Source of the DNA: an uncultured Solirubrobacterales bacterium
GTDB lineage: Bacteria > Actinomycetota > Thermoleophilia > Solirubrobacterales > 70-9
DNA: 64,000 bases
Direction of reading: 5' to 3'
Assembly: GCA_963702035.1 (NCBI GenBank)
Contig: OY969700.1
Span: forward strand, 2,301,915 to 2,365,914
In this document: in pieces, positions 12,909 to 54,186 of the stretch
Position numbering within the stretch: the first letter of the stretch is position 1
Layout of the letters: every line of letters starts with the position of its first letter
Notes under the pieces: model-generated
Told to the model about the DNA's origin: nothing
The model's input: the letters and a program-made list of their open reading frames with translations, nothing else
Databases searched by the model: none
Position numbers and translations under genes: made by a program

Positions 12909-14386
12909 CGGGCCGCTGCTGTCCAGCGGCGCTCTCGGGGCGACACGGGCGGGATCCAGGTACGTTGACTGCACCGTCAGCCTCATATGCGGGGGCTGGC
13001 TACCCCATGACCGCCGATTCGTCGCGTGGCCTGCAGTCTTGAAGCGGGCGCGGCCGGCGAGCACATCCGCCGACTGCCCGAGGACGCAACGCAGGCCGCA
13101 AAGCGGCGACGTGCTGGCCTCACTTGCTCCCGTGTCGCCCCGACAGCGTCGAGGGCGTTCCTTTCGCGGTGCCTCAGCCCAGCTGACCCACCTCCCACAC
13201 GAAGGCACCCAGCTCGCGCGCCAACGCGATCCTGACCACGTTGGCGGGCTTGCCACGCTCGAGGCGAAGGCGTTGCCAACGGTTGTGCAGACGCCGCTGG
13301 GCGCGCCAGCCGATCGCACAGGCACGGGGGTCGGCGCCGCGCTGGCGCTTCTCCAGTGCGCTGCCCACCCGGGGCTGGTGGCGGTAGTGGTGGGCTGCCT
13401 CGACGAGAAGACGGCGGGCGTGCGGAGAGCCGGCCTTGGTGATCGGCCCGCGCCGGCTTCGCTCACCGGAGGAGTGCTCGGAGGGCACGATGCCGAAGTA
13501 GGCCATCAGCGAGGCCGGGCGCTCAAAGCGCCTCAGGTCTCCCGCCTCTGCGCACAGGCCAAGCGCCGTCAGCGTGTTGATCCCGCGCAGGCAGCGCAGC
13601 CGGGCGATCGTCTCGGCCCACGGCGACTCAGGCCACAGCTCCTCGATCGTCCGCTCAGAAGCACCCCGTCGCTGTTCGAGCGCCACCACCGCGGCCAGGT
13701 AGTCCTCGAGCACGGCCCGCGAGGCGCCGTCGGGGAACCTGATCGCCTCCAGCCAACGCAAGTGGGCCTGTGTCCAGGCAGAACCGGGGCCCTCCCAGCG
13801 CAGCTCGCGGCGCAAGAGGAACTTGCCGAGCCGGTGACGGGCTCTCATCAGGTCGGCTCGGATCGCCTCCCGGCAGCGGGTCAGATCTCGGAAGCGCTCC
13901 TCCTCGGGGGTCGGGATGCGCACGAAGCGCAGTTCCCCCGCGAGGCACAGCCGCGCCAGCCGCTCGGCGTCGCGGCGATCGGTCTTGACCCGGTCGCTCG
14001 GCGCTTTGGGTATCGACCCCGGGGCACAGACGCGCACGTCGAGGTGACGTTCGGCGCCCCCTCGCGCGAGCCCGAAGCCGGTCGGTCCGGCCTCATAGAC
14101 CGCGAGGAGGGGAGCCTCGAGCCCTTCCAGGAAGTCGAGTGCTCCTCGCGGTGGGCCGTTCAGTCGTCGCGAGCGGAGCTCGCCTGTCTCGGGATGAAGA
14201 ACGCAGGCGTGAGTGTGTGTGGCGTGGACGTCGAGTCCCACCACGCTTTTAGGCTGGGGCATGTCGGCACCTCCCATGATTGGGGTGTCGGCCGCGGGGA
14301 CATCCCGCGGCCCAGTCCCCGCATCGTCATGCGCGGGGTGCCGACCTACCTACCGCTGGGGCCGGTCAGCACTCCATACGGTCTTG
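12861..14386 (-). mobile_element. IS110-family insertion sequence, copy 2
   Basis: See copy 1. Same orientation, 7913 bp downstream. Confidence 0.9.
13174..14277 (-). CDS. IS110 family transposase (one Q->H difference from copy 1)
   Basis: 367-aa ORF identical to 5261-6364 except THTHAC versus TQTHAC. Confidence 0.95.
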   Translation of the reverse strand: MGGADMPQPKSVVGLDVHATHTHACVLHPETGELRSRRLNGPPRGALDFLEGLEAPLLAVYEAGPTGFGLARGGAERHLDVRVCAPGSIPKAPSDRVKTDRRDAERLARLCLAGELRFVRIPTPEEERFRDLTRCREAIRADLMRARHRLGKFLLRRELRWEGPGSAWTQAHLRWLEAIRFPDGASRAVLEDYLAAVVALEQRRGASERTIEELWPESPWAETIARLRCLRGINTLTALGLCAEAGDLRRFERPASLMAYFGIVPSEHSSGERSRRGPITKAGSPHARRLLVEAAHHYRHQPRVGSALEKRQRGADPRACAIGWRAQRRLHNRWQRLRLERGKPANVVRIALARELGAFVWEVGQLG

Positions 14387-43799: not shown

Positions 43800-46247
43800 G
43801 TGGTTAGCGCCGGTTCCTACATCCTCAGCGCCGTCCTGCTGGCCGTCCTGGTCCTCTCGCTGGGGCTCTCGGCAGTTTGCCTGCGGCGAAGGTTCATGCC
43901 GGAGTGGGAGGGGGCTCCGGCGCACCTGGTCGAGGCGATTCTTGGGGTTGCGCTGCTGATCTGGCTGAGCGAGCTGCTCGGGCTCTTCAGCCTTCTCTAC
44001 GCGGGAACGTTGGTCGCCACGGCTGTGCTGCTGGCGGCAGCGGTTGCTTTTGGCCCGCGGGTCCTGTCGGGGAGAGCGGGTGCCGGGGCTTCGCTGGGTT
44101 TTTCGCCTGAATCGCCGGGGGCCGTCCGAGGTCGCGATCAGGGCGAAAAAGAGGACGCCGCTGTGCCCCGGCACCCCCTCTCCCCGCCACCCGCGGGAGG
44201 AGCGCTTACAGCGGTGGCTGTGGGGGTCGTGGCGCTCGTATTCGCTCACTGGGGGTTCACGGCTAAAGATGCTTTGGGTCGAGGTGTCTTCAATTTCGAT
44301 TCGCTCTGGTACCACCTGCCGTTTGCTGTGGAAATGGCGCATAGCCACTCGGTTACGGGGCTGCACTACACCGAGACGGTCTTCACGAACTGGTTCTACC
44401 CGCAGAACGGGGAGCTTCTGCACGCGGATGGGATCCTGCTCACGGGGCGGGACACGCTCAGCTTGTTCCTCAACTTCGGCTGGCTGGCGATTGCTTTTCT
44501 GGCTGCTTGGTGCATCGGCAGGCCGTATGGACGCGGGCCGCTCACGGTGGTTGCAGCTGCAGTGCTTCTGGAGTGCCACACGCTTGTGGTCCGCGAGCCC
44601 GGAGCTGCGAAGAACGATCTGATGGCGGCAGCTCTGCTGCTTGCGGCGATCGCGATCCTCGTCAATGCCAACTGGGGTGCGCACCTGAGGCCCCGGTGGG
44701 GGTGGCCCGGTCGGACGCGGCGTCCTGTTTTTCGCACGGACCACTCGGCGAGAGAAGCCGACTCCGAGGCGAAAAACCCAGCACCCGACCGGGCCACCCC
44801 CACCGGGGCCTCCTTGGCTGCCGCGGGACTAGCCGTCGGCATCGCCGTCGGGACGAAGTCGACGGCGCTGGCGATGGCCGTTGCGCTCACCGTTGCTGTG
44901 ATCGTGCTGGCGCCATCTGGTCGCCGTTGGGTCGCCGCCGGGTGGTGGTTCGCAGCAGGGGTCGCAGGCGGTGGCTACTGGTACCTCCGCAACCTCGTCA
45001 TCAGCGGCAACCCGCTCCCCCAGTTAGAGCATCTGGGGCCGATCTCATTGCCCCATCCCGAGAGGCTGCAAGAAGGTCGGCCGGACTTCTCGATCGTCCA
45101 CTACGCGACCGACACCGGCGTCTGGAGCAAGTACTTCGAGCCCGGGCTCCACCAGGCCTTCGGCGCCCTCTGGCCCCTGGTCATCGCCGCCGCCATAGCC
45201 GGCGGCCTGACCGCCCTCCTCTGGGGCCGCACGCGCGTCCTGCGCTGGATGGGCGGCGTAGCCCTCTTCGGAATGCTCGCCTACGTCTTCACCCCCCTCA
45301 GCGCCGCAGGAGCCGAGGGCGCCCCCGTCGGCTTCGCAATCAACATCCGCTACGCCATCCCAGCTCTTCTAGCGGGCCTGACCCTGCTGCCCCTTGCTTT
45401 TGGCTCCCGGGCATCCAGCGCCTCGGCCTCGTCTGTGGGTGGCGCGGGGGAGGGGGGGGTTCGGACGGGTGAGTCCGCTAACCCCCCCCTCCCCCGTGAC
45501 AGGATCCGCAGTCAAGAGGCAAGGTCCCTATCCGTCTGGGTGCTGCTTGGAGTGCTGCTCTTGGTCTTGCTCGCGACCGACCGTTCCGACGCCGCTCTTC
45601 GCGACCCCGATCGCCTCTTCGGCTGGCTGATCGCCGCTCTGGCGGTGCTGATCCCGGCTGCGCTGTTATTCGCTCGACATCGCGGCGCGTCGCGGGGCGC
45701 GATCGTGGCCGGATTCGCCGCGCTCGCCATCGCCGTGGTCGCGATCGGCTACCCGGTGCAGCGTGACTACCTGCGCAACCGTTTCCTCAACGCCGATGCC
45801 GAGGCGAGCATCCCCGGGATGCACCTCGACTCGGCCTACCGCTGGGCCCGGGGGGTCAGCGACGCCCGTATCGGCCTCGCCGGCACCACCGCCGGCTTCC
45901 TCGAGTACGGCTTCTACGGCACCGACCTGTCCAACCGCGTGCGCTACCTCGGCGTCGAGGGACCGCACGGCGCCTTCAACGCGATCCCGAGCTGCCCAGA
46001 ATTCCGCGCCGCCGTCAACGCCGCCGATCTCGACTACCTGGTCACCTCTCCCTTCCTCAACTTCATCGAGCCGGGCAAGCCGATCTCCTCTCCGGAGGCG
46101 CGCTGGCTGCGCGGCGAGCCGACGGCGGTCCCGATCCAGCGCAGCGGCCAGGTGACCGTCTGGCGCATCCGCGGCCAGCTCGACCCGTCGGCCTGCGGCC
46201 CCCGCAACGCTCCGCTTCGCAGGATCCCCAAACAACCCGTCAACTGA
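43800..46247 (+). CDS. Large polytopic membrane protein, possibly a GT-C-type glycosyltransferase
   Basis: 815 aa with more than 12 TM segments. Carries in-frame repeat insertions F1-g and R3. Confidence 0.65.
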   Translation: MVSAGSYILSAVLLAVLVLSLGLSAVCLRRRFMPEWEGAPAHLVEAILGVALLIWLSELLGLFSLLYAGTLVATAVLLAAAVAFGPRVLSGRAGAGASLGFSPESPGAVRGRDQGEKEDAAVPRHPLSPPPAGGALTAVAVGVVALVFAHWGFTAKDALGRGVFNFDSLWYHLPFAVEMAHSHSVTGLHYTETVFTNWFYPQNGELLHADGILLTGRDTLSLFLNFGWLAIAFLAAWCIGRPYGRGPLTVVAAAVLLECHTLVVREPGAAKNDLMAAALLLAAIAILVNANWGAHLRPRWGWPGRTRRPVFRTDHSAREADSEAKNPAPDRATPTGASLAAAGLAVGIAVGTKSTALAMAVALTVAVIVLAPSGRRWVAAGWWFAAGVAGGGYWYLRNLVISGNPLPQLEHLGPISLPHPERLQEGRPDFSIVHYATDTGVWSKYFEPGLHQAFGALWPLVIAAAIAGGLTALLWGRTRVLRWMGGVALFGMLAYVFTPLSAAGAEGAPVGFAINIRYAIPALLAGLTLLPLAFGSRASSASASSVGGAGEGGVRTGESANPPLPRDRIRSQEARSLSVWVLLGVLLLVLLATDRSDAALRDPDRLFGWLIAALAVLIPAALLFARHRGASRGAIVAGFAALAIAVVAIGYPVQRDYLRNRFLNADAEASIPGMHLDSAYRWARGVSDARIGLAGTTAGFLEYGFYGTDLSNRVRYLGVEGPHGAFNAIPSCPEFRAAVNAADLDYLVTSPFLNFIEPGKPISSPEARWLRGEPTAVPIQRSGQVTVWRIRGQLDPSACGPRNAPLRRIPKQPVN
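44687..44812 (+). repeat. F1 element, copy g (beta subtype), in frame inside a CDS
   Basis: Perfect 28-bp arms GAGGCCCCGGTGGGGGTGGCCCGGTCGG / CCGACCGGGCCACCCCCACCGGGGCCTC. Core reads GCGGCGTCCTGTTTTTCGCACGG...GGCGAAAAACCCAGCA. Total 126 bp = 42 codons. Confidence 0.85.
45435..45509 (+). repeat. R3 nested-hairpin repeat, copy 1, in frame inside a CDS (75 bp)
   Basis: GTGGGTGGCGCGGGGGAGGGGGGGGTTCGGACGGGTGAGTCCGCTAACCCCCCCCTCCCCCGTGACAGGATCCGC. Sister copy at 54112-54186 on the opposite strand. Confidence 0.8.
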
Positions 46248-54111: not shown

Positions 54112-54186
54112 GCGGGTCCTGTCACGGGTGAGGGGGCTGTTAGCGGACTCACCCGTCCGAACACCCCCCTCACCCGTGCCACCCGC
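54112..54186 (-). repeat. R3 nested-hairpin repeat, copy 2, 10 nt after tRNA-Leu
   Basis: The reverse complement aligns with 45435-45509 over 75 bp, with compensatory stem changes. Confidence 0.8.

Follow-up and report, generated by a model that had tools for sequence, protein, structure and literature searches.

Can a gene for a membrane protein take up a long perfect palindrome and still be read through it, and which of the two, the palindrome or the peptide that it encodes, is kept afterwards? The question is raised by a 64,000-nt stretch of the genome of an uncultured Solirubrobacterales bacterium (GenBank assembly GCA_963702035.1, contig OY969700.1, positions 2,301,915 to 2,365,914; hereafter the window, to which positions refer unless stated otherwise). 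In it, a gene at 43800–46247 (+ strand), encoding a multi-pass membrane protein of 815 amino acids, contains a 126-bp element at 44687–44812 (+ strand), called site B, whose ends are perfectly complementary over 28 nt. The element belongs to a family of palindromic repeats that is named F1 here, and it is an insertion, the derived state of the gene. Within it, what is constrained is the nucleic acid, in its pairing and in two short boxes, and not the peptide. The whole explanation favoured here, a tolerated F1 insertion with a history of nested landings, followed by vertical descent in which the stem and the boxes were kept, is considered very probable.

A palindromic repeat in a membrane-protein loop

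The left arm of the element (44687–44714, + strand, as are the parts that follow) carries a variant of the family motif, GGGGGTGGCC, and the right arm (44785–44812) is its perfect complement; pairing runs on to 37 nt at 89%. Between the arms lie box 1 (44717–44735, GCGGCGTCCTGTTTTTCGC; the reverse complement of box 1 of F1 is AGGACGCCGC), a variable apex of the beta type that holds a small hairpin (44736–44767), and box 2 (44768–44782, GGCGAAAAACCCAGC), whose A-run pairs with the T-run of box 1. Both boxes are near-invariant in all copies. The arm sequence is found at two places only in the window, with none expected from 100 shuffles, and the strand folds into one long hairpin, with an energy of -107.9 kcal/mol (z = -10.9) for RNA and of -62.5 kcal/mol (z = -10.2) for DNA. 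The element has the short architecture of the family and amounts to 42 codons, its first base being the third base of codon 296, so that it encodes residues 296–337. A previous reading of the letters alone (the sequence-only reading) had described a 126-bp unit with perfect 28-bp arms and a beta-type core, in a frame of 815 amino acids that stays open through the 42 codons. Its description stands: on recomputation the arms are complementary over 28 nt, the apex is of the beta type, one of the two types of the family, and the peptide that it quoted is right.

An intrinsic (Rho-independent) terminator was ruled out for this hairpin by its intragenic position and by the lack of a U-tract directly after the stem: the element lies inside the open reading frame, which continues for another 483 codons downstream of it, and the sequence that comes next is CTTGGCTGCC and not a T-run. 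A scan of the region against Rfam 15 returned sub-threshold plant microRNA-precursor models alone (best score 38.9 bits, against a gathering threshold of 150), which is to be expected of any long hairpin.

The genome is a single contig of 2.61 Mb (68% GC, estimated to be 95% complete), and its relatives are soil metagenome-assembled genomes (MAGs) labelled uncultured Solirubrobacterales. An iterated nhmmer profile search located 64 F1 loci in this genome (blastn gave 45 matches), a count with some ascertainment bias, since decayed copies evade a search by hidden Markov model (HMM). With respect to the 2405 genes of a self-trained gene caller (coverage 86%), 22 loci are wholly intragenic and in frame, 41 lie between genes and one lies across a gene end. 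The host genes, as identified with Pfam, include those for DnaX, the 2-oxoglutarate dehydrogenase Kgd, NuoC, the ribosomal proteins S5 and S17, a PyrK-PyrD fusion, PabA/B, MMPL, a GT4 transferase, an ABC ATPase and an AddB-like helicase-nuclease; for at least nine of these hosts, Pfam domains flank the repeat on both sides, and the copies lie in inter-domain linkers. The aligned copies share two near-invariant boxes, GCGGCGTCCTsTTTTTCGCC and the box 2 sequence given above, separated by a variable apex that is of either the alpha or the beta type, and their arms, although copy-specific, contain the motif GGGGTG(T/G)CC / GG(A/C)CACCCC. A long architecture is found in 18 copies, 12 of them in genes. 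Each of the six frames is stop-free in about 70–80% of the intergenic copies, and therefore the sole real filter on intragenic insertion is a length divisible by three; both orientations occur within genes. A paralogue of the host gene, 43% identical and outside the window (genome positions 201831–203996; region G000:C1:201831-204139), has F1 at positions homologous to two loops of the host protein, those called A and C below, and a third copy directly past its stop codon.

More than 80 species of Solirubrobacterales have the host gene in conserved form, and the orthologues of the protein that were gathered represent over 100 species. At site B the majority of these orthologues, among them every one of the more distant, have a short loop without F1 DNA, and the gene tree (699 well-aligned columns) restricts F1 to one derived clade. 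In the empty alleles (..NADRKPGWPLAAAG..) the anchors on either side of the site are 36 nt apart, compared with 159 nt in the genome under study, and the empty sequence has no significant secondary structure (z = +1.4, +0.7 and -1.7). The orthologue alignment proposed in the sequence-only reading in search of a 42-residue indel thus reveals an in-frame insertion, and no orthologue devoid of F1-like DNA has a homologous 42-residue segment. Because most orthologues do without the segment and the empty sites have no hairpin, the segment at site B is an insertion. The suggestion that the arms arrived or arose together with the element is likewise borne out, given that the palindrome is absent from the empty site and that the arms contain the family motif. 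Moreover, in the species L052 an F1 copy in (+) orientation at site A has the same arms of 16–17 nt (GGGGTGGCCCGGTCGG / CCGACCGGGCCACCCC) and the same beta core as the site-B copies, with 86–90% identity, which implies that arms and core were copied together to a new place.

The 815-residue protein itself has no match in Pfam, NCBIfam or PDB-sequence searches. Among 42 orthologues, PF13231 (PMT_2) is matched by three, with a best E-value of 7.6e-6, and PMT by one; the language-model neighbours in the Atlas also carry PMT/PMT_2. The host is probably, although with low confidence, a membrane glycosyltransferase of the GT-C type, and a weak PMT_2-like candidate. From hydropathy, the loop of site B lies between the transmembrane helices 274–292 and 344–362, that of site A (residues ~86–133) between helices 65–83 and 131–149, and that of site C (residues ~537–573) between helices 516–534 and 574–592; helix count and the positive-inside rule place all three on the predicted cytoplasmic side. 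In an AlphaFold2 model built with 42 orthologues, which is poor (mean predicted local distance difference test score, pLDDT, of 56.7), residues 88–133, 295–358 and 537–561 are coil with pLDDT below 50. The insert thus falls in a loop between predicted helices, as the topology check suggested in the sequence-only reading was meant to establish, and the loop is predicted to be cytoplasmic.

Hairpins and alleles at three sites

Repeat DNA is present at three sites (A, B and C) of the host gene across the orthologues, and it involves a second hairpin repeat of 75 nt, named H75 here, in which F1 can be nested (H75::F1). H75 consists of GCGGGTGGCG, a G-rich stem, the conserved apex TTCGGACGGGTGAGTCCGCTAA, the returning stem and CGYGACAGGACCCGC. 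The genome has 14 copies, four of them in genes that include DnaX and the host gene. The latter is the copy at site C (45435–45509, + strand; 75 nt or 25 codons, in frame), which has no F1 core; one of the 13 others lies in the window at ~54112–54186 (- strand). The long-type F1 is an H75 outer hairpin with its apex replaced by an F1 module, and to this type belongs the element at site A (44055–44198, - strand; 144 nt or 48 codons), with H75-type outer arms and a nested alpha module.

The three sites exhibit series of alleles. Site B is empty in L152, L155 and L146, contains H75 only in L149 (= L055) and L051, H75::F1 with an alpha apex in L139, L142 and L143 and with a beta apex in L140, and the short F1 in the genome under study and eight other species. 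Site C is empty in L050 and L045, contains H75 only in the genome under study, L055 and L051, and H75::F1 in L035 and ten others, with no short F1 seen. At site A, H75 alone is found intact in L052, which also has its separate F1(+) beside H75, and H75::F1 is found in the genome under study, L035 and L050. All the filled alleles of site B, short and long, have a common left junction, TGGGGnGCGCAyCTGA (encoding WGAHL), that the empty alleles do not have. In the long alleles this junction forms the outer layer and pairs with ..CAGATGC.. on the right, and in the genome under study the left relic (TGGGGTGCGCACCT, 44673–44686, + strand, which together with the next codon encodes WGAHL and is inferred from the alignments) is all that remains of an H75-type outer layer.

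These series bear on a further argument of the sequence-only reading, namely that a coding sequence is unlikely to have held a palindrome beforehand, and that the locus is thus evidence against F1 landing in existing hairpins. Both parts of it fail: sister species have a core-less H75 at this very site, and the series of H75 and H75::F1 alleles points in the opposite direction. As far as the alleles indicate, coding loops in this lineage can and do carry a palindrome before F1 arrives, and hairpin tips are exchanged within resident stems, in one direction or the other. It has also been considered, although tentatively and as a rather doubtful proposal, that F1 may be a module that seeks hairpin tips, inserting into or replacing the apex of resident hairpins, including those that are already in frame within essential genes, with its boxes then held by host-level selection or by a dedicated mechanism of maintenance. 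If this were true, there would be a nucleic-acid signal within coding sequence and, with an invertible core, one loop would give two unrelated peptides.

An inverted core is found at site A of the sister species L066 and L033, which have the same arms, and whose 66-nt F1 cores are 83% identical as reverse complements compared with 60% in direct comparison. The encoded loop accordingly reads ..RRPVFRTDRSAREA.. in one and ..LGFSPGG..GEKQDAA.. in the other, two unrelated peptides in the same loop, which is most simply explained by the inverted arms having recombined with each other. In a separate rearrangement, at site B of L070 / L038 (G011), the region of the right outer arm is tandemly triplicated (..TGPAAETHGPGP.. 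x3), giving a longer loop in which the frame is kept.

Among the alternatives, the one that survives best holds that the copies found at the same site are independent and recent landings of F1 into a resident H75 hotspot, so that the identity of their boxes would reflect youth and not constraint. Several observations speak in its favour: sister lineages differ at site B in their apexes (alpha or beta) and inner arms; filled alleles have a patchy distribution over the gene tree; a single tight clade contains empty, H75-only and H75::F1 alleles, at site B as well as at site C; and one alpha module, with inner arms CCGGGGCACA/GAAGCCCCGG, occupies H75 at sites A, C and B (L142). Against this, the short, beta-type copies at site B are closest to each other (89–93%), well above any paralogous copy: that of the genome under study shares 89–91% identity with its counterparts in G005, G172 and G004, while its best paralogous copy in the same genome reaches 80%. 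In addition, the distances over variable columns correlate with host-protein distance (site B: r = 0.38, p = 0.0065; site A: r = 0.30, p = 0.003), and the left relic is common to all short, beta-type copies of site B. The greater closeness to orthologous than to paralogous copies, together with the correlation with host distances, suggests that the orthologous copies were largely inherited in place, and independent landings, while possible, are regarded as unlikely.

Constraint on the nucleic acid

The nature of the constraint was evaluated in an alignment of nine orthologous short-type copies of site B, used for covariation and for codon positions. In the arm helix, 92.7% of the cells are standard pairs and 10 of the 32 pairs have changed on both sides; the covariation score of the arms is reached by none of 500 shuffles, and slid controls score far lower. 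In the flanking coding sequence of the orthologues, codon positions 1 and 2 are 89–92% identical and position 3 is 57–59% identical, a pattern that implies purifying selection on the host protein. Inside the insert the order is reversed, with 80% identity at positions 1 and 2 and 85% at position 3. The boxes of the orthologous copies are ~98% identical, the arms 81% and the apex ~71%, and at each of the three sites (A in 23 species, B in 14 and C in 11) the box columns are at least 95% conserved, whereas 45–55% of the other columns vary. The peptide has drifted meanwhile, as exemplified by LRPRWGWPGR in the genome under study and LRRGRGGSGR in G104. The covarying arms, the invariant boxes and the reversed codon-position pattern establish that constraint acts on pairing and boxes and not on the peptide.

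What keeps the stem and the boxes intact would be either selection or templated correction or gene conversion. The persistence of perfect or near-perfect stems could be due to selection on a hairpin, or to the templated (template-switch) correction that quasi-palindromes are known to undergo. The invariance of the boxes, for its part, could be due to selection at the level of the host, to gene conversion among copies or to recurrent replacement of the tip.

The first of these possibilities is the core of a second alternative, according to which the hairpin and its boxes are a nucleic-acid module selected by the host, for instance a binding site or a structured RNA or DNA signal, with the peptide as a by-product; this goes beyond tolerance. 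It can account for the ~98% identity of the boxes and the 85% identity of third positions in the insert, next to synonymous sites with 57–59%, for the conservation of the box columns at all three sites and for the covarying arms. It would also fit the behaviour of F1 outside genes, where most copies have one orientation after genes, such that the G·U-rich strand would be present in the transcript of the upstream gene; in the arms of 40 intergenic copies, one strand, the one opposite to the HMM orientation, has 86 G·U pairs, compared with 23 on the other. This bias, together with the shared orientation, hints at a role of F1 at the RNA level outside genes. Coding copies have no such strand bias, and the counts among site-B orthologues (39 and 32) are uninformative. 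Other considerations count against a host-selected module: it has no known partner and no Rfam family, genes contain the element in either orientation and its core is able to flip, and many orthologues manage without the element at site B. Furthermore, gene conversion among ~64 near-identical boxes or recurrent replacement of hairpin tips could hold the boxes, template-switch correction could keep the stems perfect, and the conservation is seen through the ascertainment bias mentioned above. On balance, host selection of this kind is judged rather improbable, somewhat more so than independent landings.

A third alternative concerns the fate of the message. The frame of the host stays open in 13 of the 14 site-B copies, in 23 site-A(-) copies and in 11 site-C copies, and translation would run through the insert. 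The hairpin could instead be removed or bypassed before or during translation, in an intron-like or hop-like manner, to give a protein without the 42 residues, an idea that draws on the extreme stability of the RNA hairpin (-108 kcal/mol). Skipping would leave no pressure for a length that is a multiple of three, yet in dozens of species F1 or H75 leaves the host frame uninterrupted at three sites, as is also the case in at least nine other genes with domains on both sides. The reading in which the insert is not translated is rejected on the basis of the kept length and the continuous frames, and is considered highly improbable. The sole apparent exception is G007 (L134), in which the anchors of site B are 160 nt apart, not 159, and the gene matches piecewise in different frames; this interval represents either a true frameshift or a homopolymer error, in a fragmented and possibly error-prone long-read MAG that is 67% complete.

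Finally, the idea that the 42 residues are ancestral protein sequence lost elsewhere, the hairpin being a coincidence of coding, has the open frame and nothing further in its favour, and is effectively refuted by the fact that the segment is one of 64 genomic repeat copies, by the same DNA being found between genes and in unrelated genes, by the more distant orthologues without the segment and by the greater conservation of third codon positions than of first and second ones in the insert.

History, known systems and significance

The favoured explanation, a tolerated insertion inherited with its stem and boxes, runs as follows. Non-autonomous F1 DNA was inserted into the predicted cytoplasmic-loop region of the probable GT-C-type gene; the length in multiples of three and the stop-free, GC-rich sequence left the gene open, and the resulting loop of 42 residues, rich in Arg, Pro and Gly and probably disordered, would have been tolerated. 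In the most economical history of the site, in three steps, an H75-type hairpin would first have been inserted in frame; the F1 module would then, most likely, have entered this older H75 or replaced its tip; and the outer H75 layer would later have been lost, save for the left relic, while the arms became symmetrical again. Vertical descent in several species would have followed, during which compensatory changes kept the stem paired and the boxes stayed nearly invariant, while the peptide drifted.

Several observations weigh against this account. The direction from H75 to H75::F1 is unproven, and at site C the tree, read by parsimony, would even favour H75::F1 as the earlier state. The patchy distribution of the filled state, described above, means that a single ancient insertion needs several losses or replacements. 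Every filled allele is without the ancestral PGWP codons that the empty alleles keep (L067, L074, L058 and L063), so either some 5–20 ancestral codons were replaced on insertion or filled and empty alleles were exchanged between species; a recombination test on the flanks gave no clear sign of a filled allele imported from the L031/L032 lineage. With the nearest species already 10–20% diverged, no target-site duplication or exact junction is definable, and public reads gave short soil-metagenome contigs only, with a shared fraction of sampled words of 0.17 or less, and no contig spanned the element. The near-invariant boxes, kept in situ, are unexpected for a purely selfish and decaying insertion. 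Lastly, no enzyme that would mobilise F1, whether a transposase or another, was identified. A search of the single-contig genome for the Y1/RAYT transposase, PF01797, gave no matches while the controls matched, and for this reason the REPIN/RAYT model was ruled out. As for other transposases, eight copies of the IS110 family are present in the genome, for example in the window at ~5900–6330 and ~13816–14241 (- strand).

How does F1 compare with the repeats described so far? A full-text literature search found no paper on palindromic repeats in Solirubrobacterales. The closest kind is that of the Rickettsia palindromic elements (RPE), palindromic repeats of ~150 bp, nearly half of which lie in frame in unrelated genes (Ogata et al. 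2000, summarised in PMC10969869), and whose encoded peptide is described as conserved. The comparison was made with this description, and "RPE-like" denotes a functional kind and not a family by homology. F1 shares its three features, a dispersed multicopy palindrome, an in-frame intragenic share and a tolerant location: it is also a dispersed palindrome of ~100–150 bp with many copies in frame in unrelated housekeeping genes, and the extra segments are tolerated by the protein fold, which in the case of F1 means loops and inter-domain linkers. The differences are nonetheless considerable. The host of F1 is an actinomycetote with 68% GC, and that of RPE an AT-rich alphaproteobacterium; the boxes of F1 are asymmetric and near-invariant while its arms covary and are copy-specific, and F1 is found nested in a second hairpin family and has a core that is flipped between sister species; and its peptide is unconserved, positions 1 and 2 being less conserved than position 3, unlike that of RPE.

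Other systems resemble F1 in part. Repetitive extragenic palindromes (REPs) and REPINs, which RAYT (TnpA-REP) transposases mobilise, are also short, hairpin-forming multicopy repeats that lie mostly just after genes, but REPs are classically extragenic, whereas one third of F1 is intragenic and in frame and there is no RAYT gene here. Bacterial MITEs (miniature transposable elements with inverted repeats) that make in-frame fusions include ERIC, BOX, Correia and others (PMC10969869). Like F1, they are small, non-autonomous and structured, and at times intragenic with an open frame; for F1, however, no terminal inverted repeats matching a resident insertion sequence (IS) were found, the arms vary between copies and are not conserved transposase-binding ends, and at the divergence given above there is no definable target-site duplication. 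The palindromic coding repeats known as PARCELs are tandem arrays of a conserved amphipathic motif of 25 residues, under constraint at the protein level (PMC2996958). They share with F1 the translation of dyad-symmetric DNA, often in membrane-associated proteins, but F1 is a single dispersed unit of 100–145 bp constrained at the nucleotide level. Some mobile elements target hairpins, such as IS1111/IS110 elements in REPs and class C group II introns after terminators. The likeness resides in landing in or at an existing stem-loop, as the series from H75 to H75::F1 suggests; the difference is that those elements have an enzyme of their own and land beside or within the stem, whereas F1 encodes nothing recognisable and replaces the tip.

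The phenomenon described in Rickettsia, of selfish palindromes that become part of proteins, is not confined to that genus, and is also common in an abundant, uncultured lineage of soil actinobacteria, where insertions of F1 reach genes for ribosomal proteins, DnaX and respiratory complexes. In practical terms, F1 and H75 inserts inflate loops, and for these MAGs they can lead astray the calling of genes, the annotation of domains and the prediction of structures. The conservation of boxes and the covariation of stems, set against a drifting peptide, provide a clean case of constraint at the nucleotide level overriding constraint at the codon level. With its series of empty, H75, H75::F1 and flipped-core alleles, seen over three loops, this one gene constitutes a concrete natural system for two questions: by what route repeats of this kind spread, apparently into hairpins that are already present, and in what way new loops arise in proteins.

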